NCBI GenBank assembly: GCA_050015395.1
Contig: JBEKBM010000001.1
Location: 1 to 64,000 of the forward strand
Origin: Candidatus Bathyarchaeia archaeon
GTDB lineage: Archaea > Thermoproteota > Bathyarchaeia > Bathyarchaeales > Bathycorpusculaceae
Direction of reading: 5' to 3'
DNA length: 64,000 nt
A program made the position numbers and the translations under genes. Within the stretch, counting starts at the first letter, position 1, and every line of letters begins with the position of its first letter. The notes below the pieces were generated by a model that worked only from the letters and a program-made list of their open reading frames with translations, searched no databases and was not told where the DNA came from. Positions 3,453 to 63,903 of the stretch are shown one piece after another.

Positions 3453-4234
3453 TTTTGGTCGTCCTTGCCTCGGCTTGTAGCTATTAGAGCTGCGCCTAAG
3501 GCGCCTGCAAAATCGGGATAGTCAGGTATCAATACGTTAACACTTAACTTTCGATTTAGTGATGCAACAAAACCAACGTCTTTAGCTACGCCGCCCATGA
3601 GAACTACATCAGGGTTTACACCTAACCTGTTAACCATCGATGAAATCCGGTCAGCAATAGCGTCAAAAACTGCCCTTGCAATTTCAGGCTCAGACTCCTG
3701 CCGATGGATAAGCGAAACAACATCGGATTCACCGAAAATCACGCACGTAGCGTTTATAGGACTTGCCCTTTCAGCCTTAAGAGACAGCGGACCCATCTCC
3801 TCCAATTTAACCTCTAACGCTCTTGCCATAGCCTCAATAAATGCTCCCGCACCGGCAGCGCATCGTTCGTTAACGATAAAATCAACCATAACGCCTTTCT
3901 CGTCGCATTTGACGGCTCTTGCTTCTTCGGCGCCAACATCAATTATCGTTCTAGCTTTCGGAAAAAGGTAGACTCCTGCTTTAGCATCAGCGCCCATCAT
4001 GCTTACGGTGCTGTTGGCGTAAGGCGCCATTTCCATAGCTGAACCAGTAGCGACAAAATAAGCTACATCAGATATTTTCAGGTTTGCTTGTTTTAGCGCT
4101 TCCTCTATTGCTTGTTCGGCGGCTTTGGTTGGATCGAACCCTGAGAATGCTTTTCCTCTTGATAAAACAGCATTGTCCTTTAGGATTACCGCTTTTACTC
4201 TCTGGGTGCCTAAATCCATTCCGACGGTAATCAT
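3449..4234 (-). CDS. BzdP/BcrD-type activase subunit
   Basis: GMDLGT, IDVGAEE, NERCAAGAG, ATCVIFGES; overlaps the next gene by 4 bp. Confidence 0.9.
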   Translation of the reverse strand: MITVGMDLGTQRVKAVILKDNAVLSRGKAFSGFDPTKAAEQAIEEALKQANLKISDVAYFVATGSAMEMAPYANSTVSMMGADAKAGVYLFPKARTIIDVGAEEARAVKCDEKGVMVDFIVNERCAAGAGAFIEAMARALEVKLEEMGPLSLKAERASPINATCVIFGESDVVSLIHRQESEPEIARAVFDAIADRISSMVNRLGVNPDVVLMGGVAKDVGFVASLNRKLSVNVLIPDYPDFAGALGAALIATSRGKDDQK

Positions 4235-4244
4235 GAAGTCACCT

Positions 4245-5576
4245 TTAGAAATTCACTCTTGCCGTTAACATTTCAAGGAACGCTTCAACACGCGTCTTCA
4301 TTTGCCCAACGTCTTCCCTAGTATACTCAGTGTCAAGATAATACACGGGGATATTTATTTTGTCAAGAGCTTTCTTAATTCTGGTGTACTCCATTGCGTA
4401 GAGCATGCAGCCGCGCACCACATAGTAAATAACGCCTTGAACATTCCATTCCTTAACCTTATTTATCAACCAGTTAATCCTATCTTCATTTCCGTCGCTA
4501 GACGTGAAGCAGGGGCAAGTGGAAGCCATTAGGTACCGTTCTCCAATAGCGCTAAGCATATCATCCATATTCCATTCATCTACGCCAACTGGGTCGATGA
4601 GGATTTTTTCGCCTGAACAAAGCTCATCTGCAACGATAACGCCTCTAGGATTAGCTTCCTCAACCAAAGTTGGCAGCTTCCAGTTATCAGGCCAAAACAT
4701 TGGTGTACCCGTTACTAGTACCCGCGGAGTATCAGGAGAACAAACCCAATCTTTCCTCTGCACTCTCTTTTCCAGCTCATCACACAATGCTTCCGTTTTC
4801 TCCGTCCAACGCACTTTATCATCCCACAAGTACGCTTGATTAACCAGCATAGCGTCTCTACCCATAATTACTGGTTGACCTTTACGCAAATCCTGTAGGC
4901 GGCGAAAAGTTTTCGTTGCCTTCTGCGTCTGCTCAATAGCCACCTTCAAGCTTTTCCTAGTAATTTTGTTGCCCGTAAATTCCTCAATTTGCGCTTTCAT
5001 AAGTTTTATTTCATCCTTCCAAAAACGAAGTGAATTAGCAGAATCTTTAACCCTTGGAATATTCATTTCCCAAACAGTCTTGTAATCACTTAAAATTTCG
5101 CTCAGTTTAGTCATTCCGTCACATGTTAAAACACTAATCAAAGCATCGCTCAACTCAAGAAAAGGCGAAAGCTCAATCATTTTCGCGCCTATAGTTGAAC
5201 GAATAACAGGACAAACCTCCACCGGCACAACTCTGTCGCCAACTTTAGAAGCATCATACCAACCTGAATTTACCCTGACTGGAATGGCGTCAGCTGCTAA
5301 AATTAACTCTATCGGAGCAAACAAGCACATGTAACCAATAACTTTCTTACCCGTCTCCTTCTCAGCCAGAATCTCGGTTGGACGTTTGCCAAACAAGTTT
5401 GCGATTTCATCAAAATACTTCATGGCTTCAGGTCTGTTAGGGTCAGTTTTTTTCATGTGCTCAATATTCTCAGCCATTACCTTCTGAGACACCGTTTTGA
5501 TAGAGTTTCTAAGTTCTTCTATTTCTTTTGTGGGAATTTCAGGCATATACTTTTTTTCAATTTTTTCGCTTTTCAT
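4245..5576 (-). CDS. 2-hydroxyacyl-CoA dehydratase family / double-cubane cluster protein
   Basis: GYMCLFAPIELI, VCPVIRS, TCDG, DELCSG, TCPCF, RGC, QMKTRVEAFLEM. The Cys pattern fits the DCCP subfamily. Confidence 0.85.
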   Translation of the reverse strand: MKSEKIEKKYMPEIPTKEIEELRNSIKTVSQKVMAENIEHMKKTDPNRPEAMKYFDEIANLFGKRPTEILAEKETGKKVIGYMCLFAPIELILAADAIPVRVNSGWYDASKVGDRVVPVEVCPVIRSTIGAKMIELSPFLELSDALISVLTCDGMTKLSEILSDYKTVWEMNIPRVKDSANSLRFWKDEIKLMKAQIEEFTGNKITRKSLKVAIEQTQKATKTFRRLQDLRKGQPVIMGRDAMLVNQAYLWDDKVRWTEKTEALCDELEKRVQRKDWVCSPDTPRVLVTGTPMFWPDNWKLPTLVEEANPRGVIVADELCSGEKILIDPVGVDEWNMDDMLSAIGERYLMASTCPCFTSSDGNEDRINWLINKVKEWNVQGVIYYVVRGCMLYAMEYTRIKKALDKINIPVYYLDTEYTREDVGQMKTRVEAFLEMLTARVNF

Positions 5577-5584
5577 TCTTTTCT

Positions 5585-6565
5585 TCACTCACTTGTTGAT
5601 TGTTCTAACCAGTTTCTCGATTTGAATACTGTTTTATTCCCAAGCTTCACTTTCAAGGCATCTTCGTAGGGGCACATTTCAGCGCATCGCAAGCATAACA
5701 TGCACATTGAAGTATTTATTTTTCCTCCCTTCTGCTCATACACATCGGTAACTTGCGATTGACAAACCCTCTTGCAAACGCCGCACTTTGTACATTTTTC
5801 CTCATCTTTTTCAATATGAAGCAGAGGCGCCCACTTGAAACCCTTAAACCTATTCACAACCGCTAATGAGGCGCCGGTTGGGCAGAAGCGACACCAAACT
5901 CGTCTTATAAAGAATGAACCTGCCAGCGTCAAACCGACAAAAGTAATGGCGATTATTTGACCGATATTTTGGCTAGCATAATTGATGATGTCTTGAGCAT
6001 AGGGGTAACTAAGGTTAATCTGATTAACAACTAATGGGCCCTTCCATGGAACAACTAGTGGAATCATGGGATCAAGCAGAACACTGTATATTCGGAAGGG
6101 ACCAGCCAGTAGTTGCACCATAACAACGGCAAAGTTAAAATTTGGAGGCGGTTGAATCCGCCATAAGATAGCAGGCAAAAACAAGAAAAACAACAGTAAT
6201 ACGTATCTTGATTGATGCAGGCTCTTGTTAAGTTTTTCAGGAATATTTCGGTAGCGAATGCTGAACGCTTTTCTTAGTGGAATCAATAGATCCATGACTA
6301 AGCCGAATGGGCAAAGCCACCCACAATATAGCCGACCTAAAACAATAGTCATTGTAAAAACAACAATCAACACATAGAGAAGCGGAATAGAATAAGTGAA
6401 CACATAAAATATGGCTGCAAAAGCGACCGCCTGAATGACTAGCCTAATGTAAGTTATTCTTACCGATAAGTTCTTTTTCCATATCAAAATGGCAAGTATC
6501 CCTGCTACCCCAAGTCCTGCAAGCACTGCAATTCTCAGTACGTCACCTATGATTTCCCAAATCAT
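5585..6565 (-). CDS. Second NapH/MauN-family membrane polyferredoxin
   Basis: GRLYCGWLCPFG, RRVWCRFCP, 2x CxxCxxCxxxC. C-terminus closely similar to 958..2175 (CPYEDAL...KSRNWLEQ). Confidence 0.9.
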   Translation of the reverse strand: MIWEIIGDVLRIAVLAGLGVAGILAILIWKKNLSVRITYIRLVIQAVAFAAIFYVFTYSIPLLYVLIVVFTMTIVLGRLYCGWLCPFGLVMDLLIPLRKAFSIRYRNIPEKLNKSLHQSRYVLLLFFLFLPAILWRIQPPPNFNFAVVMVQLLAGPFRIYSVLLDPMIPLVVPWKGPLVVNQINLSYPYAQDIINYASQNIGQIIAITFVGLTLAGSFFIRRVWCRFCPTGASLAVVNRFKGFKWAPLLHIEKDEEKCTKCGVCKRVCQSQVTDVYEQKGGKINTSMCMLCLRCAEMCPYEDALKVKLGNKTVFKSRNWLEQSTSE

Positions 6566-6813
6566 TTCTTTCTCGCCATTTAATTATTACATTTGAATTT
6601 GATTTCAATGTGCTAATCCAAGCACTATTAGGATTCCGCACCTGACGTTGCTATGAGAAGCACTTACACAATGCGTTTCAGAGGCTTCAGATATAAACGA
6701 CATGCGGAGGTCTCAACGAATTTTTAATACTCAAAATATGAAAAGAACCTTTTAAATCTTCCATGTCTTTGCAGCCTCATCGTTTCTTTTGCGTTTTGGC
6801 AAGAAAACTTGGG

Positions 6814-9072
6814 TCATGAAGGAGGAGGTATTACCCGTGTATTGTACTGTTTCAGATATGCCAAGTGCGCTGCATTATAGGGGTAGCTTTCAGCTGTCGT
6901 GTACGGGAACCCGCTCATGCCCATGAAAGGCAACGGGTTAACGGTAAAGCTGAATCCATAGCCCCAGCCTCCAGGCGGATCTTTAAACCAGCAAGCTACG
7001 AAGAAAAAGTAGTCTCTCACCATGCCCTTGGCAGGTGCCGTGAGATTGCTGACTGGAAAGTCCAGAGTAACTTGGTCGCCTTGTCGTCCGATTACATACA
7101 TGTTGTCTGCATTTTGAAGTAGCGCTGTTACATCACCATATCTTGTGAAGTTTCCGGAAGACGTCGAGTTGGTATCCCACACTTGGCTTAGAGTTGCGAT
7201 GGGGCTGATTTTTTGAACTGTTATGTTCTGTTGAGTAGTAAGGTCAACTCCAATGTAGTCGTAGGTTACATTCCACCAATTGACAATTCTAATCTGGTAA
7301 TCGCTTAAGCCTGCGGGAAATAATCCTGTTAAGTCCACCACGAAAGTTCTAGGGTTAGAATCTGAAGGGATTGGCATCTGCCTGTCCTGTGGAACAGGAA
7401 TCCACGTACCGTTTGGATATTTAACTTCCATGTATGAGGGCGGAGTAATTTGCGTGCCATTTGGTACAAGTCCTTGGGCAGCTGCCGCTTTAAAGCTGTT
7501 TACCCAATTGTCATAAGCGCCAGGTGATCCCCAATCAACTATTCCGTTGATTACAAGTTTGATTTGTTTTGCAGAGGATAAGTTACCTAAGTCTAGCGTT
7601 AACTGGTTTAAGTAGATATTGTCCCATGACGGACTAAGAACCCCATTGTTGCCAGGCGTGAAGACACCGTCAAGCTTTGAAATTTGAGGTAATACATTTT
7701 CCCCTTTCGCGTTAGTGCCACTTGGTCCCCAAACATAAGTTGCACTGACTGGTGATGTTACGCTATTTTGGTTAACTGTGTAGATTTGATCGTTTAAGCC
7801 TTGGTTTAGATAATTAGTTACACTTGAGTAAACGTCGGTACCTACTGGGTGGTCAACAACTAGCAGGTACGCTACATCTAAGTAGAAGATTTCATCTGCT
7901 TGTTGGAAAAGAGTCATGCCATAGTAATTGTTGCCATCAATGTTTTTTACTGCTAGCAGATTTTTGTCAAGCTTTACGTTGTCCCACGGGTTTCCTCCGA
8001 TATACACGATGTTGCCGTTACTAGTCATGTAGCCCATGTATCCTAACCAGCCAGCGTTTGAAACGTCAGTAACATAAGAGTAGCCTGTTCCATTCCATGT
8101 GTACAGCGACGGACAAGATGCATATCCACTGATTACGGTATAGGTTGCAACGAGAACTAGGAAATTGTTTAACGTGAAAGTTCTCGATGCACTGGTTACG
8201 CCATCGCTCCAAGATGAAAATGCTAGTACGCCAGTTTCAACGCTGAAAGGATTTGGTACGGATACGGAATATTGTCCATCTGGCATAAGTTCACTGAAAG
8301 GCATATAATAGGTGACTCCGTTTAGGGTAAAGGGTAATGCCGTGGAGCCACCGCCAGACCTGGTAATTATGAGTGTGTGGTAACCAGTCTGTACGATTGA
8401 GAATTCCCCGCCTAAAGTGTTCAGTTTGAGGGCGTGCATTCCTATTGTTGTTGCATTAACCGTGAATTCCACAGTTTCGGTTGTACTTGCGTTCAATTGA
8501 ATAAGTCTGCCTTGTACCAAGGCACCATCAACTGTTACCATAACATAAAGGCTACTCGACTGTGTGGTTGGGTTTTCTGCAGTGGCGGTCACGTTAACCG
8601 GTTGATTTGGCCAAGCTTCATATGGATTAAAAAGCAGGTTGGATAAAATTATTTTGCTTGATCCTGGAGGAGCAGGGTTAATTACGAACATTCCTGTCAA
8701 ATCGCCGACTTTGACAGTATAATTGTCCGGTGTAGTTTCGATGTCGGTGAACTGGACAAGTTGAGACGCACCGCCTTCAAGCGTTACGTTTTCTGTGTCT
8801 TTTGTTGCATTGTTGATTTCAAGATTTAGGGTTTGGTTGCCTTCTAAAGCGCCGACGTTTGTTACGTTAACTGAAATTTCTACGGCATCGGTCACGTTTG
8901 CTTCAGGTGGATTGATGGTAAGGTTTGTTAGGATAAACTTAGCGGGCTTAGGCGCCGTTGCTATCACGCCTTGATTTTGAAGATAAAGGTAGGCTCCTGC
9001 AGCTGAACCGATAATGATAAGGTCAATAATCAGTATCGCTTTCAATTTAACTTTGGCTGAAGTAGATAGCAT
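6814..9072 (-). CDS. Large membrane-anchored surface protein with CARDB/Ig-like repeats and an SCP-motif C-terminal domain
   Basis: N-terminal TM, two Ig-like repeats (NLTINP...VNVTNVG; NLLFNP...ATAENP), SCPSLYTWNG and PLPFMGMSGFPY...YNTR motifs, many NxS/T sequons. Confidence 0.75.
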   Translation of the reverse strand: MLSTSAKVKLKAILIIDLIIIGSAAGAYLYLQNQGVIATAPKPAKFILTNLTINPPEANVTDAVEISVNVTNVGALEGNQTLNLEINNATKDTENVTLEGGASQLVQFTDIETTPDNYTVKVGDLTGMFVINPAPPGSSKIILSNLLFNPYEAWPNQPVNVTATAENPTTQSSSLYVMVTVDGALVQGRLIQLNASTTETVEFTVNATTIGMHALKLNTLGGEFSIVQTGYHTLIITRSGGGSTALPFTLNGVTYYMPFSELMPDGQYSVSVPNPFSVETGVLAFSSWSDGVTSASRTFTLNNFLVLVATYTVISGYASCPSLYTWNGTGYSYVTDVSNAGWLGYMGYMTSNGNIVYIGGNPWDNVKLDKNLLAVKNIDGNNYYGMTLFQQADEIFYLDVAYLLVVDHPVGTDVYSSVTNYLNQGLNDQIYTVNQNSVTSPVSATYVWGPSGTNAKGENVLPQISKLDGVFTPGNNGVLSPSWDNIYLNQLTLDLGNLSSAKQIKLVINGIVDWGSPGAYDNWVNSFKAAAAQGLVPNGTQITPPSYMEVKYPNGTWIPVPQDRQMPIPSDSNPRTFVVDLTGLFPAGLSDYQIRIVNWWNVTYDYIGVDLTTQQNITVQKISPIATLSQVWDTNSTSSGNFTRYGDVTALLQNADNMYVIGRQGDQVTLDFPVSNLTAPAKGMVRDYFFFVACWFKDPPGGWGYGFSFTVNPLPFMGMSGFPYTTAESYPYNAAHLAYLKQYNTRVIPPPS

Positions 9073-9236
9073 TCACACAGCCCTCTACACATTTATTCAA
9101 GTCAGCAGATAATGCTAACCACCATTAAAGTGTTTTTGTTTCTGAAAAATCTGTTCTATCCTGATTTGCTTTTTGCTGTTGTTTTGATATTGCAATCACA
9201 TGGTTAAGCGATTTTTAGAATTTTATGAGCATTCTT

Positions 9237-9683
9237 TTATGGACATTCTGGTTCAATGTGAACTGTGACAACCGCGTTTGCAAAGCGCTCTTTTGTTTCT
9301 TTCTCAACCTGTGAGGCAATCCTGTGAGCTTCTTTTATATGAATTTGCTTGGTGAAGCAGCAGTCGATGTTAATGTAACGTTTACCCTCAGCAGCGTAAG
9401 TATCTATTCGTTTTATGCGCAGGTTACCACCGATGCCATTGGCAACTTCGTAAATGACTTTTCTAAGCTGCGTCTCATTTACCTCGGCGGCAGGAACCGC
9501 CATACCTGAAGGCTCTATATGTACAGTAACGTTTTCAAGCGGCTTAATTTCAGTTTTCTTTATGCGCTCGATATTTTCAGCCATTATCTTTTGAGACGCG
9601 GTTTTAACGGAGTTTCTAAGCTCATCGATTTCTTTTCTGGGAATTTCAGGCATGAACTTTTTTTCGTTTTTTTCGCTTTTCAT
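9237..9683 (-). CDS. Chimeric ORF: DCCP N-terminal copy fused to a cation-efflux (CDF) C-terminal dimerization domain; possibly a pseudogene
   Basis: First ~45 aa match the N-terminus of 4245..5576. The remainder has VTVHIEP twice and EAHRIASQVE, typical of ZT_dimer. Confidence 0.6.
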   Translation of the reverse strand: MKSEKNEKKFMPEIPRKEIDELRNSVKTASQKIMAENIERIKKTEIKPLENVTVHIEPSGMAVPAAEVNETQLRKVIYEVANGIGGNLRIKRIDTYAAEGKRYINIDCCFTKQIHIKEAHRIASQVEKETKERFANAVVTVHIEPECP

Positions 9684-9760
9684 TTTTCCTCACTTACGTT
9701 TTGATGTTCCGATCAGTTTTCTAATTTCGCCGTCGATTTTCAAATCCGTTCTTTTCGTTA

Positions 9761-10459
9761 TTATAAGTGAATTATTGCATTTATCAATTCGGCAATTCCA
9801 AGCACTATTAGTATTCCTGCCCCTCCTATTGAAATCCATTTCCGCAATAAGGGTGCCTTGTTAAGAAGCCAACCAGTAGCTCCTCCCAGCAGTAGCATCG
9901 GAGACAAGGCGGTTCCTAAACCAAACAAGACAGCTAAACCCACACTGCCAATTGGAGTTGAGAAAGGCAACGAATAAATTAAGAGCGCCACCAACGGTGG
10001 ACATAGGATTAATCCTCTGCTTAAACCAAGCGAAAAAGCGCTAAAATCAAACCCAAACCTGCCTGTCTTTCCCTGCGCAACCGAGGTTTTGCTATTTGGT
10101 AGATTGCACTCGCATGGTGACCTTAACTTTAGAAGAATGCTAGCGCCAATAATCATAGTCACAATGCTGAAGGTAATTGAAGAATAAATTTGAAACGGCG
10201 AAATTGCGGTATTAGACACAGCCAACCTGAACAAACCGCTAAATAAACCGACTAAACATCCAATTAAGGCGTAAGCTGCTATCCGTCCAGAATTAAAAAT
10301 TAACGTTACAACAATGCCTTTGCGGAAACCAGCACCGATGCCTGCAATGTAACTTGCGATGTAAGGTACACACGCTGCGGTGCAAACAGCTAATCCATAT
10401 AATAATCCGCCAGCAAACGCTCCAAGATACGGATTAGAGATTTCGGGTATTAACGACAT
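9761..10459 (-). CDS. DsbD_2/TauE-like membrane protein (cytochrome c biogenesis-like TM domain)
   Basis: GLAVCTAACVP, FNSGRIAAY, GLILCPP, FGLGT motifs; about 6 TM helices. Confidence 0.8.
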   Translation of the reverse strand: MSLIPEISNPYLGAFAGGLLYGLAVCTAACVPYIASYIAGIGAGFRKGIVVTLIFNSGRIAAYALIGCLVGLFSGLFRLAVSNTAISPFQIYSSITFSIVTMIIGASILLKLRSPCECNLPNSKTSVAQGKTGRFGFDFSAFSLGLSRGLILCPPLVALLIYSLPFSTPIGSVGLAVLFGLGTALSPMLLLGGATGWLLNKAPLLRKWISIGGAGILIVLGIAELINAIIHL

Positions 10460-25452: not shown

Positions 25453-26064
25453 ATGGAGAAAGTAAAATCGTTTAGTCTACCAAAACTGCCCTATGACTAT
25501 AATGCTCTAGCACCATACATTTCAGAGCAACAACTAAAACTCCACCACGACAAGCACCATCAAGCCTACGTGAACGGTGCAAACGCGGCTTTTGAAAAAC
25601 TTGACAAGGCACGCAGCGAAAACGCTGACGTCGATATGAAAGCCATGCTGAAAGAGTTATCCTTCAACGTCGGAGGACATATCTTGCACACTGCATTCTG
25701 GGAAAACATGGCGCCAGCAGGCAAAGGCGGAGGAAAACCAGGCGGAGCCGTAGCCGACATGATTGATATGGGCTTTGGAAGCTTCGAGCGGTTCAAAAAG
25801 GAATTCACGATGGCTGCTACAAGCGTTGAAGGTTCAGGATGGGCTGCCTTAGCCGTGCACCCATGCATCGGAAGACCACTGATAATGCAAATCGAAAAAC
25901 ACAACATGAACGTTTACCCAACATTCAACATCTTGATGGTTTTGGATGTTTGGGAACACGCTTACTACTTGGACTACAAGAACGAGCGGCCAAAGTTCGT
26001 TGAAGCCTTCTGGAACATCGTCAACTGGGATAAAGTTAACAAAAACCTTAGCCTCGTAAAGTAA
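25453..26064 (+). CDS. sod: Fe/Mn superoxide dismutase
   Basis: [29 protein letters not shown]. Confidence 0.97.
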
Positions 26065-26278
26065 GCTTACGGCTTACCTTTTTCTTATTTTTTGTGTGCA
26101 GATAAGCAACTAAAATGACCGCTCCGACTCATTTTTCTGAAAAGCGTTTTTCAAGCTCCTTTTATTGTTCAGGGCTTGTATTTGGTTTAGGCTGGGGCTA
26201 GAAAAGGTAAAATTTGGTTAAAAAAGGTTAAAAAAGGTGCAAAAAGGCAAAAAAGGCTACAGCAAATCAGCGCTTGTT

Positions 26279-26596
26279 TTATGGTGGCGGGGTGATTTTT
26301 ATCGCTTGCGCTGGACACTGCATTTCGCATGCTAAGCATTGTATGCAGTCGTTTTCGCGGGCAGGGTCAGATTTCCTCTCAGAAAGCGGGTGCCCAGGAG
26401 ATTCAGCCCAATCATACAATGAAACGGGGCAAACGTCTATGCATACTCCGTCTCCAATGCAGGAATCCCAGTCTACAGCACTGGATGTCCCATGAATACC
26501 CAGTTTCAGCGGGGCTTCAACTGGTCCCCAAACTTTATGTCCGTTATGTTCGCCGACAACTTGGCGTTTTGTTTGAAAATCAGGGTCTATTGGCAT
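26279..26596 (-). CDS. zfx: Zinc-containing ferredoxin (Sulfolobus/Thermoplasma Zfx type)
   Basis: N-terminal VVGEHNGHKVWGPVE..LGIHGT extension, CIGDGVCIDVCP, CIQCLACEMQCP. Confidence 0.85.
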   Translation of the reverse strand: MPIDPDFQTKRQVVGEHNGHKVWGPVEAPLKLGIHGTSSAVDWDSCIGDGVCIDVCPVSLYDWAESPGHPLSERKSDPARENDCIQCLACEMQCPAQAIKITPPP

Positions 26597-26678
26597 AAAA
26601 ATTCACCATATTAATATTAAATTCAGAAAAACCTGAATATTAGGTTTTCTACTCAGAGATACTGTTAAGTTATTTGAC

Positions 26679-27206
26679 CTAAATGGATGAGCCACAGATT
26701 TGGTCGAGTTGATGCAACAGTTCTTTTGAGAGATAGAACCTACAGTTTTTGATTGCGCTGCGTATGTTTCTTAAATCTTGTCGGGTTAAAAAATCGTTGT
26801 CTTTCATTTCTTTGATTATGCCGATTGTTCCGATTACCTTCACTTTCAGAAGGTTGCAGACATTTCGAGCAAACATTTCATCAATTACACAAATAAACTC
26901 GGTATGTTGGCGAGCGTAAGAAACAACCCAAATTTCGCCAGAAGTTGACTCATAGTAGAAGTAAGGAAGCAACTCAACATCTAGCTTCACATCAGTTGGG
27001 CTAAAAACTTCTCTGAATGCATCAGCATTCGGTTTAGGGTTTTCACTATCCCCCATACAATATTCTTCCATGACGCGAGTAGGTGCTGTTATGGTAAATT
27101 TGTTAGAGAATGCCAACAACTGCGCTTTTAGTTGGCACTTTTCAAGAAGCATTATCGACGGTGAAGTATCAAAAACATACTTCTTTTTACTTGCAGAGAG
27201 AGCCAA
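26679..27206 (-). CDS. PIN-domain nuclease (DUF3368-like)
   Basis: VFDTS, V.EE, GE, IDE..AR, GTIGII motifs. Confidence 0.8.
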   Translation of the reverse strand: MALSASKKKYVFDTSPSIMLLEKCQLKAQLLAFSNKFTITAPTRVMEEYCMGDSENPKPNADAFREVFSPTDVKLDVELLPYFYYESTSGEIWVVSYARQHTEFICVIDEMFARNVCNLLKVKVIGTIGIIKEMKDNDFLTRQDLRNIRSAIKNCRFYLSKELLHQLDQICGSSI

Positions 27207-27750
27207 GGAAATCTTTCTCGCTCATGTCAAGCCACTTAGCGGCTGTAGTTGAATTTATGCGACCCTTCAGGAAAAGACTCTGAACAAGAGGTACTCTCTT
27301 TTTTTCTAACCTTGAAAACTCGGTAGAATTAACAACTGATTCAGGAATGAGACGATACATAAAGTACATCAGCTCATCAGGGGTCAAGTCATTTAGTTGT
27401 TGTTTGGCGAAAATCAATTTTTCAAGGTCTTTCCTGTCTAGACCAGACAGCAACTTTTCGGCTATTTCTTGCCCTTCTTCTGTAAGAACATAGTTCTTAT
27501 CGTCTTTTTCTACTAAGCCAGAGTCTTGGAGTGTCTCAAGGTTCTTTTCTAACTCGTATGAGACAACTCCTAGTTTAAAGTTCGAGAACCTGATTTCTGT
27601 TGTGTTTCTTAGGTACTCAAAATAACGGATTATCTTGTGCAAGTGAATGATGTCCATTTCTTTGCGGTCGCATCGGTCTTTTAACTGCAAAACCATAAGT
27701 GAATATTTCCTTGAAGGCGCGTTAAGACCGTAATCCTCGATATAGCACAT
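27187..27750 (-). CDS. Winged-helix protein with C-terminal UPF0175-like HTH (putative antitoxin)
   Basis: LHKI..F, G..S.EL...LE.L...GLV...YVLTEEG wHTH (Panacea/YwgA-like); LFLKGRINSTTAAKWLDMSEKDFL; overlaps the PIN gene by 20 bp. Confidence 0.65.
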   Translation of the reverse strand: MCYIEDYGLNAPSRKYSLMVLQLKDRCDRKEMDIIHLHKIIRYFEYLRNTTEIRFSNFKLGVVSYELEKNLETLQDSGLVEKDDKNYVLTEEGQEIAEKLLSGLDRKDLEKLIFAKQQLNDLTPDELMYFMYRLIPESVVNSTEFSRLEKKRVPLVQSLFLKGRINSTTAAKWLDMSEKDFLGSLCK

Positions 27751-27784
27751 AGTTTTAAATGTTGAACAACTTGATTAAATATTT

Positions 27785-28864
27785 ATGGGACAAATATTTA
27801 AAATCCAAGAAAAGGGTCGAGATGAAGAACTAGGGCTAATCAAGAAGCAAATAACATCCGACAATAGCAACTTTTGCTTTGATAGTCCCGTTGTTTCGCA
27901 AAGAGCCAACAAATTTGACCCTGACATAAAGATTCAGGAAATTATTCGACATATTGACGAAAAAGTAGTTGACTCTTTGGTAACTAGACACATAAAGCCC
28001 TTTGCCGATGCTGTTAAAGAAGAATTTGCAACTGATAAGCTAAACGCTACACTTTTTGACTTTAAGTATAATGATTTTCCGAGCGACGATAACCTTAGGG
28101 TAATTGCTCATGCCTTGCATGGGGCAAGTGACAAAGTGGTGTTTCTACCTACAGTAAAGAAAGCATTACTTATGGGCGATAGGCCTGGGCTTAAAACGCC
28201 TAGCCTTAGCTTGGATAGAATAGAATCTTACAAAAAAATGATGAAGCTAATAATAGACGAGATAAGGATGCCTAAGAACGGCAAAGAAATTGTCGGCATG
28301 GTTCCATTTCTGCCATCCAAGTTTGCTAGACCAATAATTGATTTTTATGCTTCTGAGGGCATTCGAGCTTTTGCAATTGATTGCGGTTTCAATGATATAA
28401 TGGATTACGAAGATGACTTTGCGTATCTTCTTTCCACAATAAAGAAGTCGGTTATTCCTCTGGAACAGACTGTAATTTTTGCGTTTAACGCTGGCATAGG
28501 ACCATCCTATGAAGCGACCGAGATTGTGTCAGATGATTTCTTAGGCGTTTTTGCGTATGTTGATGTTTTAGGTTCTACTTTCAAACAGAGAGGTGGTGGC
28601 GACAGCGAACCTAGAGCAAAAGTCTTTTCAAGAGACAAATATGCGTATGACATTCGGCGTTATCCAGATTTGCGACCGCAATTTGGGAAATATGTGAACC
28701 CTGCTACTATACGAAACTTCAACAAATCTGAGCAACGGAAAGAGACAGCGAAAATTCGTGATTTAGTTGGGGTAGAGAAGATGAAAAAATATTTAGCTAC
28801 TAAACCTGCGGTAAATCAGGATTCGATGAAGCACTTGGAATCCATTGCTCGGAAGATAGGTTAG
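27785..28864 (+). CDS. Hypothetical alpha/beta-barrel protein, possibly a divergent TGT-like fold
   Basis: 359-aa ORF with alternating strand/helix pattern (VVFLP, IVGMVP, AFAID, IFAFN, VDVLG). N-terminal F.I...DSP start recalls TGT. No DSGG or Zn-site motif. Confidence 0.55.
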   Translation: MGQIFKIQEKGRDEELGLIKKQITSDNSNFCFDSPVVSQRANKFDPDIKIQEIIRHIDEKVVDSLVTRHIKPFADAVKEEFATDKLNATLFDFKYNDFPSDDNLRVIAHALHGASDKVVFLPTVKKALLMGDRPGLKTPSLSLDRIESYKKMMKLIIDEIRMPKNGKEIVGMVPFLPSKFARPIIDFYASEGIRAFAIDCGFNDIMDYEDDFAYLLSTIKKSVIPLEQTVIFAFNAGIGPSYEATEIVSDDFLGVFAYVDVLGSTFKQRGGGDSEPRAKVFSRDKYAYDIRRYPDLRPQFGKYVNPATIRNFNKSEQRKETAKIRDLVGVEKMKKYLATKPAVNQDSMKHLESIARKIG

Positions 28865-28981
28865 GCAACTCCTACGTTTTTTTTGATTTTTTTCTCCCAT
28901 TCAACATGAGTTAGTATGCCCTTGTGTTCCAGAACGCTTAAAATAGGCACTTATATAATAAAAGGTGAGAAGAAAAATAGT

Positions 28982-29061
28982 GCGGGCATAACATAGCTCG
29001 GTTAAGTGTGATGGCTCCTCCGAAGCTGGAAACGTGGGTTCAAATCCCACTACCCGCACCA
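28982..29061 (+). tRNA. Atypical tRNA-Gly(TCC)-like gene
   Basis: Cloverleaf: GCGGGCA/TACCCGC acceptor (one C-A mismatch), ACAT/GTGT D stem, TGGCT-CCTCCGA-AGCTG anticodon arm, GTGGG-TTCAAAT-CCCAC, A73 and encoded CCA; TTATATAA about 25-30 nt upstream. Confidence 0.7.
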
Positions 29062-29263
29062 TTATAGTTATTTTATGATGAGGTTATAGATTTGTTTTGT
29101 GGTTCAAGCGGATTTTGTTATCACTTCTCCACCATACGAAGATGTACTCAGTAACCCCTTTGATGCCAGCAACTATTGGGTCAAATAACTTAACAGTATC
29201 CTACTCAGGGTTCTTCCACAAAACATTTTTGGGATAACTATCCTATTATTTTAGGTGGTTTGA

Positions 29264-30043
29264 ATGGTTCAGTACTATTTGCCCATTGGGATGAGATACT
29301 CCACTCTTGAAGAAAGAAAACAATTCTACAGTTCTGAATTTAATCTTCAAAAAGTTGCCCAATGGTTCGGCAGTCAAAGCGACAAAGTAAAGTTTGCGGT
29401 AATCATAGGCAGGCACACAAAAATTTACCCCGAAAAATACAAAGAAGACGCTTCAACAACCATAATAATCGATGAGTATTCAGGCTTAGAGGACGTGAAA
29501 GGGCAGATAATTGAGTTTTTGCCTGAAGCAGTATACTACGACCGAAACGTCTATGATGAAAACGACCACAAGATTGGTCAAGAGCTCGCTTTCGACCTTG
29601 ACCCAGAAAACATAACCTGCCCAATCCACGGTACCTTAGCAGATAAAATGAAGCGACACCAAGGGTTTAGTTTCTGCGAATTAGAACTGGAAATGGTTAA
29701 GCAGGAAGCACTACGCCTCTACGAGTTTCTTGCAAATCGTTTTTCTGAGGTCAGGGTTGTTTATTCTGGCAGAGGCTTCCACCTGCATGTTTTAGACCAA
29801 CAAGCCTACCTGTTGAATACCAAAGAGAGGCTTGACCTTGCACAGCAAGTAAAAAGCGCTGGGTTTCACATTGACGAATGGGTCACTTCTGGCGAAATGC
29901 GCTTAATACGGCTTCCATACAGCTTAAACGGTTTAGTGTCAAGAATTGTGTTGCCACTAACAAAAGGTGAACTGGAAAGCTTCGACGCTATCCACGATGA
30001 AAGGTGCTTGCCAAAATTCCTGAGCAAAAAGCTTACTTTTTAA
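29264..30043 (+). CDS. Archaeo-eukaryotic primase small-subunit-like protein (PriS-like paralog)
   Basis: ELAFDLD, VYSGRGFHLHV, IDEWVT, RLIRLPYSLN. Confidence 0.85.
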   Translation: MVQYYLPIGMRYSTLEERKQFYSSEFNLQKVAQWFGSQSDKVKFAVIIGRHTKIYPEKYKEDASTTIIIDEYSGLEDVKGQIIEFLPEAVYYDRNVYDENDHKIGQELAFDLDPENITCPIHGTLADKMKRHQGFSFCELELEMVKQEALRLYEFLANRFSEVRVVYSGRGFHLHVLDQQAYLLNTKERLDLAQQVKSAGFHIDEWVTSGEMRLIRLPYSLNGLVSRIVLPLTKGELESFDAIHDERCLPKFLSKKLTF

Positions 30044-30131
30044 CCTGTTTGGCTTTTTTCTCGGTTTTGGCATAGTAGGCTTTCTTTTTCTTTTCTTCTT
30101 CTGCTTTTGTTGGTTTGGTTGGTTTTGCCAT
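30033..30131 (-). CDS. 32-aa lysine-rich microprotein
   Basis: MAKPTKPTKAEEEKKKKAYYAKTEKKAKQVKK*; GAGGA RBS and CTTTTATG TATA-like box upstream. Confidence 0.5.
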   Translation of the reverse strand: MAKPTKPTKAEEEKKKKAYYAKTEKKAKQVKK

Positions 30132-43510: not shown

Positions 43511-43623
43511 GCAGGCACACTTGCGAGAGTTTCATTTTACATTAGCAAAAGCACTATAAGAAAACTTGTTGTCTCACCCACACTACCACAACCACATCAC
43601 CGCTATATTGTAAAGCAAAGAAG

Positions 43624-43720
43624 CGGGCCCGCTGGGATTTGAACCCAGGATTTTCGGCTAACCCCCGCTTTGAGAAGCGTCCGGAGGCCGACGCCTTAAT
43701 CCGTACTAGACTACGGGCCC
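43624..43720 (-). tRNA. tRNA-Arg(CCG) with 21-nt intron at 37/38 (43660-43680)
   Basis: GGGCCCG/CGGGCCC acceptor, TCGGC-CTCCGG[intron]A-GCCGA, CTGGG-TTCAAAT-CCCAG. Confidence 0.93.
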
Positions 43721-63824: not shown

Positions 63825-63903
63825 TGGTGCGGTCGCCGGGATTTGAACCCGGGATCATTAGCTTGGAAGGCTAATGTCCTAAACCAGACTAGACGACGAC
63901 CGC
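63825..63903 (-). tRNA. tRNA-Gly(TCC), canonical
   Basis: GCGGTCG/CGACCGC acceptor, TTAGC-CTTCCAA-GCTAA, CCGGG-TTCAAAT-CCCGG, ACCA end. Confidence 0.96.

Follow-up and report, generated by a model that had tools for sequence, protein, structure and literature searches.

Closest described systems and overview of the locus

[quoted passage not shown] MICs, or mobile insertion cassettes, as outlined in the portion of PMC3129680 that we used, have IS ends and passenger genes, lack a transposase, and are in principle mobilisable in trans by a cognate transposase. Here, we compare with these and other described systems a mobile element found within a stretch of 64,000 nucleotides from a Candidatus Bathyarchaeia archaeon (assembly GCA_050015395.1, contig JBEKBM010000001.1, positions 1 to 64,000 of the forward strand); this whole stretch is hereafter called the window. 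The element carries genes for a PIN-like nuclease, a winged helix-turn-helix (wHTH) protein, and a 359-aa protein, together with a tRNA-like gene.

As regards the protein genes, the part of PMC5499597 considered here classes COG2405/DUF3368 proteins as potential toxins and reports UPF0175 exclusively with COG2405. The same part of that source places COG2405 in new three-component systems, and the form named there, PIN + HTH + DUF955 protease, differs from the trio in the window. PDC-S70 appears, in the portion of PMC12988326 consulted, as a PIN-domain, archaea-enriched, unvalidated candidate. The trio in the window has in common with the COG2405-UPF0175 toxin-antitoxin (TA) pairs a PIN protein whose acidic residues are invariant, and the partner gene that overlaps it upstream encodes a tail resembling UPF0175 below the Pfam cut-off. 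It differs from them in the antitoxin, which has a wHTH and helical extension of ~165 residues, in a constant, divergently oriented third gene whose product has a predicted fold like that of tRNA-guanine transglycosylase (TGT), and in a toxin that can be exchanged for ParE.

The explanation that we favor, with a probability of about 0.72, is that the element is a transposase-less deletion derivative of an IS6-like transposon, that its three protein genes form a conserved TA-like module, and that its tRNA-like gene is accidental cargo. What is new is the third component of the module, together with the IS6-related family of cargo transposons and its cassette. A three-gene system from uncultured archaea in which a TGT-fold protein and a wHTH antitoxin stay constant and the toxin is swapped has the signature of a modular sensor-effector system. 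The features of the element are listed below (window coordinates, strand in brackets).

26649-26657 (no strand): left copy of the target-site duplication, CTACTCAGA, read from the sequence and present in single copy at the empty sites of genomes G019 and G004
26658-26682 (+): left terminal inverted repeat of the IS6-like family, perfect over 26658-26679; sibling elements share this end, which in relatives stands next to the PIN gene
26679-27206 (-): PIN-like nuclease of the COG2405/DUF3368 type, PDC-S70, predicted toxin, 175 aa (PADLOC, Pfam, alignment)
27187-27750 (-): wHTH protein (shorthand WH) with a helical middle and a UPF0175-like C-terminal tail, 187 aa, predicted antitoxin and regulator (Pfam, PADLOC)
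27751-27784 (no strand): divergent intergenic region of 34 bp with two A/T boxes, TTTTAAAT and TTAAATAT (spacer comparison)
27785-28864 (+): 359-aa protein (shorthand BIG) of an uncharacterised family, putative remote relative of the TGT fold, a TIM barrel (Atlas, hhalign)
28864-28947 (-): remnant of the last ~28 codons of a 53-aa open reading frame (ORF) standing last in the transposase operon of intact relatives; deletion breakpoint (tblastn, frame translations)
28951-28958 (+): TATA-like box TTATATAA, ~27 nt upstream of the tRNA-like gene (read from the sequence)
28982-29061 (+): tRNA-Gly(UCC)-like gene of atypical form, 77 nt followed by an encoded CCA (ARAGORN, Rfam)
29176-29200 (-): right terminal inverted repeat (repeat search)
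29201-29209 (no strand): right copy of the target-site duplication, CTACTCAGG (sequence, empty-site junctions)

The element is an insertion with empty sites in related genomes

The insertion, 2.5 kb in size, lies between a 2x[4Fe-4S] ferredoxin gene (26279-26596, -) and a gene for a DNA_primase_S-like, or PriS-like, protein (29264-30043, +), as assigned with Pfam. A preliminary description of this DNA had reported perfect 22-bp terminal inverted repeats (TIRs), a direct repeat on both flanks, three ORFs and a tRNA-like gene with no transposase, and a PIN stop codon overlapping the left repeat; all of this was confirmed. Indeed, the two TIR arms are 25 nt long with 96% complementarity, and their first 22 nt (26658-26679 and 29179-29200) are perfect. 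With up to three mismatches allowed, the 22-mer occurred at only two places in the 64-kb window and at none in 100 shuffles. The direct repeat measures 9 bp, with eight of the nine positions identical between its copies, the PIN stop codon (26679-26681) has one base in common with the perfect repeat, and no transposase domain was found by Pfam in the three proteins.

Window positions 25900-30100 were searched against 60 other genomes of the same genus. Both flanks adjoin each other in many of them, as in G019 (contig C3, 27615-27999 and 28007-28895, at 92-94% identity) and likewise in G004, G016, G062, G013, G052, and G021; among the matches listed, none fell within the interior of the element. 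The junctions inspected in G004, G019, G071, and G003 each have one copy of the target, reading ...TTTCTACTTAACGAATTCTTCCAC in G019 and ...TTTCTACATATAGAGTTCTTCCAC in G004. Thus, the element is a real insertion between the ferredoxin gene and the PriS-like gene, and the earlier proposal of a mobile cassette without transposase holds: its target duplication is genuine, and relatives have the empty site that had been anticipated.

In all four metagenome runs (4/4), contigs span the whole element without any difference. These runs come from peat and wetland, and they also contain relatives at 90-95% identity whose contigs join the flanks without the element (window 26595-29392). Filled and empty sites therefore co-occur in the habitat, in different lineages.

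Origin by loss of the transposase operon

A close relative of the element was found on a metagenome contig (L051), which has 81% DNA identity to window positions 26660-28935 and only over that span. The ends of the L051 element lie at 3858-10076. Between them stand the PIN, wHTH, and 359-aa genes, then two small ORFs of 53 and 56 aa (orf53 and orf56, opposite strand), an intact transposase of 306 aa, and, after the transposase, a ParB_N/DUF488 protein and three more ORFs, all between the same TIRs. The transposase matches DDE_Tnp_IS240 (PF13610) with an E-value of 2.4e-18 and has an N-terminal CxxC...CxxC motif. Transposases 73-74% identical to it occur, as intact or split copies, in the loci L031, L106, and L107. 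The transposase of the family is, therefore, of the IS6 type, with a DDE_Tnp_IS240 domain and an N-terminal CxxC zinc ribbon. Since this is the cognate transposase of related intact copies, the ends of the window element are of the IS6 type as well, which bears out what their sequence had suggested at first sight. Two likenesses to IS6/IS26 elements follow the same line: the DDE_Tnp_IS240 transposase goes with a TIR that has the conserved cTGTt, as given in the part of PMC7986276 at hand, and an N-terminal CxxC zinc-ribbon transposase is described for longer IS6 members.

The window retains a trace of the lost operon. The remnant at 28864-28947 matches residues 26-53 of L051 orf53 at 68% in tblastn, the nucleotide homology to L051 stops at 28935, inside orf53, and from this breakpoint to the right end there are 243 bp, with the tRNA-like gene, in place of the transposase operon. 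The orf53 remnant and the 243-bp replacement indicate that the window element is non-autonomous and arose by deletion from an IS6-like transposon with passenger genes. In the sequence of events that we propose, a parent transposon would have lost its transposase operon, and a foreign 243-bp segment bearing a tRNA-Gly(UCC)-like gene with its own promoter would have come to lie at the point of deletion.

The own genome of the window (G000) comprises 42 contigs and is 98.9% complete. The only piece of the cognate transposase found in it was a fragment on contig C13 (28175-28360), 62 residues long and 81% identical to residues 126-187 of the L051 protein, which sits within an element of which a single end was detected on that contig. 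No intact cognate transposase was found in these 42 contigs, where an unassembled copy is possible. With IS ends, a target-site duplication, passenger genes, and no transposase, the element is a MIC in the sense of the part of PMC3129680 cited above. It differs from previously described MICs, MITEs, and transporter insertion sequences (tIS) in being archaeal (Bathyarchaeia), of the IS6 type, and derived from a tIS-like parent (L051) by deletion of the transposase operon, and in the lack of an intact cognate transposase among the contigs of its genome.

The small ORF pair that stands directly downstream of the transposase in intact elements (L051:6077-6386, -) was also found in L026, L027, L031, L106, and L107. 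It encodes a 56-aa protein with a ribbon-helix-helix appearance and a 53-aa protein with the motif ...EEVDLLDTMLSSL...EWEK, neither of which is in Pfam. The pair may be a regulator of the transposase or a further small TA pair.

A separate IS6-type element is present in the same genome. Its gene on contig C23, the only intact IS6-type gene of the genome, encodes 382 aa with a SWIM zinc finger and is 32% identical to the L051 type; it belongs to an element at C23:47050-49674 (locus L015, 647-3271) with 28-nt ends starting GGTTCTTTCAAGTCTTCGG... and a Methyltransf_24 passenger. C-terminal fragments of the same transposase type occur on contigs C26, C37, C14, and C21. The C23 element was considered as donor and rejected, both its ends (GGTTCTTTCAAGTCTTCGG...) and its transposase (32% identity) being different.

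The tRNA-like gene is cargo of one element

The tRNA-like gene is atypical. Its score against the Rfam tRNA model is 40.3 bits (gathering score 29) vs 68.1 for the host tRNA-Gly(UCC) at 63828-63903. The anticodon loop, CCUCCGA, has C33 at a position where U is near-universal, and G37; one extra base stands between the D and anticodon stems, after position 26; and the minimum free energy fold gives no clean cloverleaf. U8, A14, G18G19, and the T-loop are present, with a good T-arm, and the acceptor end (G1-C72, C2-G71, G3-C70, A73) matches the host tRNA-Gly genes. The gene is at most 70% identical to the other 38 ARAGORN tRNA genes of the genome, its best DNA relative among 40 related genomes is a tRNA-Arg(UCG) at 80%, and its anticodon arm had no exact match in viral contigs. 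The host already has the tRNA-Gly isoacceptors UCC, CCC, and GCC.

As a redundant isoacceptor with a divergent body inside a mobile element, the gene resembles the tRNA genes carried by viruses and other mobile elements. It differs from them in being found in one element only, in its C33, and in its position at a deletion scar.

The preliminary description had placed this gene at the center of a defence or addiction system, with tRNA as the target of the PIN protein, a TGT-like enzyme as its modifier or sensor, and the tRNA of the cassette in the role of decoy or backup. Several observations fit such a scheme. The gene lies inside the TIRs with a TATA-like box 27 nt upstream, and its acceptor end agrees with that of the host tRNA-Gly, next to an unusual anticodon loop. 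Cleavage of tRNA is known for some PIN toxins, TGT enzymes have tRNA as their substrate, and a sibling element on contig C21 has another translation gene, an extra rpS17e, by its right end. However, no tRNA stands beside the module in any of the 14 other informative loci (0/14), including the 81%-identical L051, the only one found being a tRNA-Ala 5.3 kb away in L026, and for this reason the tRNA-centered system fails. Furthermore, the segment with the tRNA sits exactly where the transposase operon was lost, the toxin can be of the ParE type instead of PIN, the TGT-fold protein apparently has none of the TGT catalytic and zinc residues, and the tRNA itself scores low (40 vs 68 bits). We consider this scheme very improbable. 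We conclude that the cassette tRNA is foreign DNA acquired at the deletion, a lineage-specific cargo and not a component of the module, which corrects an appealing idea that lacks support.

A three-gene module with an exchangeable toxin

To evaluate the conservation of the protein genes, we considered the 14 other loci with DNA upstream of the 359-aa gene (L025-L033, L035, L051, and L067-L069), excluding L034, L036, L052, and L053, which are cut off upstream. They include one Nitrososphaerales genome (37% identity). All of them (14/14) have the wHTH gene, likewise oriented away from the 359-aa gene, and 12 of the 14 have the PIN gene. The three proteins thus co-occur across Bathyarchaeia and in one Nitrososphaerales genome, as the preliminary description had expected of a genuine system.

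In L067 and L069, which come from another family of the phylum, the wHTH gene is followed by a ParE_toxin gene (1.4e-11 and 5.4e-10, respectively). The wHTH proteins of these two loci keep residues 1-165 and have a different, longer C-terminal tail. The PIN toxin is swapped for a ParE-type toxin while both other genes stay, which identifies the wHTH and TGT-fold pair as the core. More precisely, the constant core consists of the 359-aa protein and wHTH residues 1-165, whereas the tail is exchanged along with the toxin.

The identity of the two other proteins agrees with the PIN and UPF0175-type pairing first proposed. The PIN protein matches PADLOC PDC-S70 (E-value 4.5e-16) over residues 8-171, and its acidic residues D13, E48, D109, and E110 are invariant in 12 sequences. 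The wHTH ORF overlaps the PIN ORF by 20 nt, and its product matches Pfam HTH_45 (1.2e-6) and PADLOC PDC-M19A (3.2e-10). The Atlas clusters nearest to it are archaeal UPF0175 proteins of 183-205 aa, with UPF0175 in 34-80% of their members; no match to the wHTH protein was found in a plasmid collection. The Pfam scores for DUF3368 and UPF0175, both below their cut-offs, are considered below. As for the earlier statement that the combination is not a described system, it stands for the trio as such and for the 359-aa protein, unmatched in Pfam, NCBIfam, and PADLOC, and does not stand for the two partners taken singly, the PIN protein matching the PADLOC candidate PDC-S70 and the wHTH protein PDC-M19A.

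The spacer between the divergent wHTH and 359-aa genes is 33-36 bp long in all the loci compared (12/12). In the window and in the nine closer of the 11 other loci, each of the two A/T boxes keeps a distance of ~25-30 bp to the opposite start codon; in L032, L035, and L067, drift of the boxes is seen. The boxes are probably back-to-back archaeal promoters for leaderless transcripts, and the intergenic region is a likely operator.

The module is also associated with mobile elements beyond the window. An end of the same family adjoins the PIN stop codon in L025, L027, L028, L029, L031, and L051, and lies downstream of the 359-aa gene in L026 and L031. IS6-type transposase genes or fragments are found in L031, L032, L051, L067 (a fragment), and L069. 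It follows that IS6-like elements belonging to two or more lineages carry the module.

The 359-aa protein and its putative relation to TGT

The 359-aa protein had no Pfam, NCBIfam, or PADLOC hit. Its 54 close homologues are all unnamed, and a full profile search recovered 235 clusters at 50% identity; ten distant family members had no Pfam domain, profiles of the family found nothing significant among Protein Data Bank (PDB) sequences, and no relative was found in viral contigs. The distribution is patchy, with 5/401 genomes sampled from the phylum.

The ESM Atlas model of the exact sequence has a predicted template modeling (pTM) score of 0.86, and among its named structural neighbours the TGT-family clusters reach template modeling (TM) scores of 0.68-0.70 vs 0.46-0.50 for other TIM barrels. 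Furthermore, we aligned with hhalign a profile of 86 diverse family members (alignment A3) to a profile of 30 archaeal TGT sequences from genomes of the phylum. The local score was 36.5 with a probability of 26.5%, which is weak, and a collinear global alignment of 330 columns scored 33.6 with a probability of 76.5%. The controls (the reversed and five block-shuffled TGT alignments) scored 13-21 in local and 1.7-3.3 in global mode. The alignment A1 of the family gave nothing in hhalign against the single host TGT sequence. With PF01702, the 359-aa protein had no hit at E<=0.1, and a six-frame search of the genome at E<=1 found only the archaeal TGT of the host (arcTGT).

In the low-confidence global alignment, the TGT motif 'TDSGAYQ' falls in a gap, 'LD.PT' faces L-P122-T, and 'CDLFDS' faces R/K-x-F281, and no conserved Cys is present in the family alignments. 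In TGT, such motifs bear both catalytic aspartates as well as the substrate aspartate, and a Cys3His site binds zinc. Near-invariant among the 86 members are instead E52, K167, Y188, D199, N235, D251, D260, Y286, Y288, N313, E320, and K340. Compared with TGT (PF01702) and DpdA, the protein shares the TIM-barrel resemblance, a 'TP' start, and the strand motifs 'G..IP', '..LG..H', and 'xF...Y.Y'. It differs in having no Pfam TGT hit and no PUA or C-terminal domains, in offering no counterpart for the TGT aspartate motifs and the CxCxxC...H zinc site, and in the context of its gene, a TA pair on a transposon. The model and the profiles suggest that the protein has a TGT-like fold and is probably not a member of the TGT enzyme family; insofar as the uncertain alignment can be followed, it appears to be devoid of the TGT catalytic aspartates and zinc site. 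Hence, the label of TGT-like protein given at first agrees with the model and the controlled profile alignment as far as the fold goes, and the label of modifying enzyme has to be qualified, the residues for base exchange apparently being missing.

Could the protein nevertheless be an active enzyme of base exchange, or one acting on the glycosidic bond of DNA or RNA like DpdA and TGT, which marks self while the toxin pair enforces, in a restriction-modification-like or Dpd-like manner? The TGT-like fold is compatible with this, and the near-invariant polar residues of the 86 members suggest a conserved active or binding site. Yet, the residues at the TGT catalytic-aspartate and zinc-ligand motifs are different or deleted in the alignment, PF01702 misses the protein even at E<=1, and no genes for preQ0/7-deazaguanine synthesis and no DpdB-like ATPase were seen in the elements. 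On this basis, an active enzyme seems to us distinctly unlikely.

Two further occurrences of the family were also noted. On the plasmid CP050016.1 of Haloarcula sp. JP-L23 (L108, 206331-207545), a distant 404-aa member, annotated as hypothetical, lies beside an 832-aa N6-methylase-like protein. A 2.4-kb sibling of the window element in another genome (L105, G076:C13:464376-466806) carries a 440-aa protein and a fragment similar to residues 165-340 of the 359-aa protein, at 38% identity.

A family of IS6-related cargo transposons

The preliminary description had suggested that the 22-mer would lead to sibling elements, and the same ends were indeed found elsewhere in the genome. A pattern search of the own genome with up to three mismatches located the 22-mer at seven places, and a profile of the ends (nhmmer) located 11 ends at E<=0.02. 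Further complete pairs lie at C4:6300-7992, with CTTTGTTAG on both flanks, and at C21:9324-13105, with CTAAAATTA on both flanks, each a perfect 9-bp duplication; solo ends lie at C13:30027, C24:48897, C30:3256, C40:8763, and C19:40090. Across the genus, a 21-mer of the end (up to two mismatches) was found in 15/61 genomes vs one hit for a reversed control, and the 9-bp duplication is exact in each of five more paired elements, which measure 674, 745, 2431, 3791, and 5391 bp. In total, the duplication is present in 8/10 pairs examined, seven being exact and that of the window matching at 8/9 positions; the pairs in L031 and L051 have no target duplication. The ends of the family read GATACTGTTAAGTTA..., with CTGTT at TIR positions 5-9, and element sizes range from 0.67 to 6.2 kb. 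A reading of the ends as GG-tipped with an 8-bp duplication was considered and rejected, as G does not consistently precede the repeat and seven pairs have exact 9-mers.

A family is thus defined that is related to IS6, generates 9-bp duplications, and extends from MITE-like forms of 0.7 kb to elements of 6 kb, the latter loaded with restriction-modification, GmrSD, NYN, and TA genes. The cargo of the siblings includes N6_N4 DNA methylases, a PD-(D/E)XK-like protein, an AlwI-like endonuclease, GmrSD, an NYN nuclease, a ParB_N and a PAPS-reductase-like protein, and a C39-like peptidase; it varies between elements and is largely of the defence type. This range bears on the movement of defence genes in Bathyarchaeia, where mobile elements are little described.

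It could be argued that the module is purely a post-segregational or anti-loss addiction device, which would benefit the transposon or the plasmids or viruses ferrying it and play no part against viruses, and that the TGT-fold protein works for the element itself, perhaps by handling DNA when the element transposes. The TA-like architecture would suit such a device, and most loci show a tight linkage of the module with IS6-like ends or transposases (TIRs in L025-L029, L031, and L051). Against this, sibling elements with the same ends move without the module, so the module is not needed for transposition; moreover, the cargo of the family is of the defence type, and the PIN family is a catalogued defence candidate in the part of PMC12988326 cited above. 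We regard a role limited to addiction as rather unlikely, keeping in mind that addiction and antiviral roles are compatible with each other.

Two siblings of the own genome are described here for their content. The element at C21:9324-13105 (L009, 1025-4806) carries an N6_N4 methylase, a PD-(D/E)XK-like protein, a 309-aa protein, and a second rpS17e. This second copy (C21:12703-12933) is 88% identical to the chromosomal one (C23:17278-17499) and adjoins the right end, like the tRNA in the window; from this shared placement, capture of host-like genes near the right end may be recurrent. The element that runs from the solo end at C40:8763 to the end of the contig (L014, 3764-7875) carries a ParB_N protein, a 189-aa protein, an AlwI-like endonuclease, and a PAPS-reductase-like protein. 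It looks like a DNA-modification or restriction island, and no right end was detected up to where the contig stops.

Proposed mechanism and points against the favored explanation

The steps proposed here are drawn from the architecture of the module, its conservation, and what is known of the families. The N-terminal part of the wHTH protein would bind and repress the 34-bp bidirectional promoter, and its UPF0175-like C-terminal tail would hold and neutralise the PIN toxin. The TGT-fold protein would team up with the conserved wHTH part and act as a sensor or modulator, binding a nucleobase, a nucleotide, or a nucleic acid, and would not be a canonical transglycosylase. Once released, the PIN (or ParE) toxin would stop growth, which would stabilise the element and/or abort a virus infection. 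The module is, most likely, a tripartite TA system that stabilises the transposon and/or aborts virus infection.

A more specific form of this proposal would make the wHTH and TGT-fold pair a new archaeal sensor-regulator. Its transglycosylase barrel, catalytically re-tooled, would recognise a nucleobase or nucleic acid of an unusual kind, such as modifications of the 7-deazaguanine type in invading DNA or RNA, and the pair would release PIN or ParE, as an abortive-infection unit spread on IS6-like shuttles of defence genes in Bathyarchaeia. In this detailed form, we consider the idea unlikely and offer it as speculation.

Some observations weigh against the favored explanation as a whole, namely a transposase-less IS6-like derivative with a TA-like module and a tRNA as accidental cargo. 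With regard to the transposon, the target-site duplication of the window has one mismatch, and the family departs from IS6/IS26 in several respects: relative to the part of PMC7986276 cited above, the duplication is of 9 bp and not 8, the tip is GA and not GG, there is no caaa, and elements reach 6.2 kb with several passengers. The window copy, in addition, is without any transposase. With regard to the module, the PIN protein scores 14.8 bits with Pfam DUF3368, below the cut-off of 27.3, and residues 135-185 of the wHTH protein score 19.1 bits with UPF0175 vs a cut-off of 27.9. The relation of the 359-aa protein to TGT comes from a predicted Atlas model and a weak profile alignment, and the 359-aa-like gene of the Haloarcula plasmid has no wHTH or PIN neighbour by tblastn. 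Finally, the cassette tRNA may be functional and could matter locally, considering its intact T-arm, its glycine-like acceptor end, and the TATA-like box, which lies at the usual position of archaeal TATA boxes and may act as a promoter.

A further tRNA call in the window

Outside the element, at 43623-43720 (-), ARAGORN calls an unnamed tRNA of 98 nt with a 4-base 'anticodon', ccgg, which scores 51.8 bits with Rfam. This tRNA probably contains an intron, and similar 98-nt calls are present on contigs C2 and C36.

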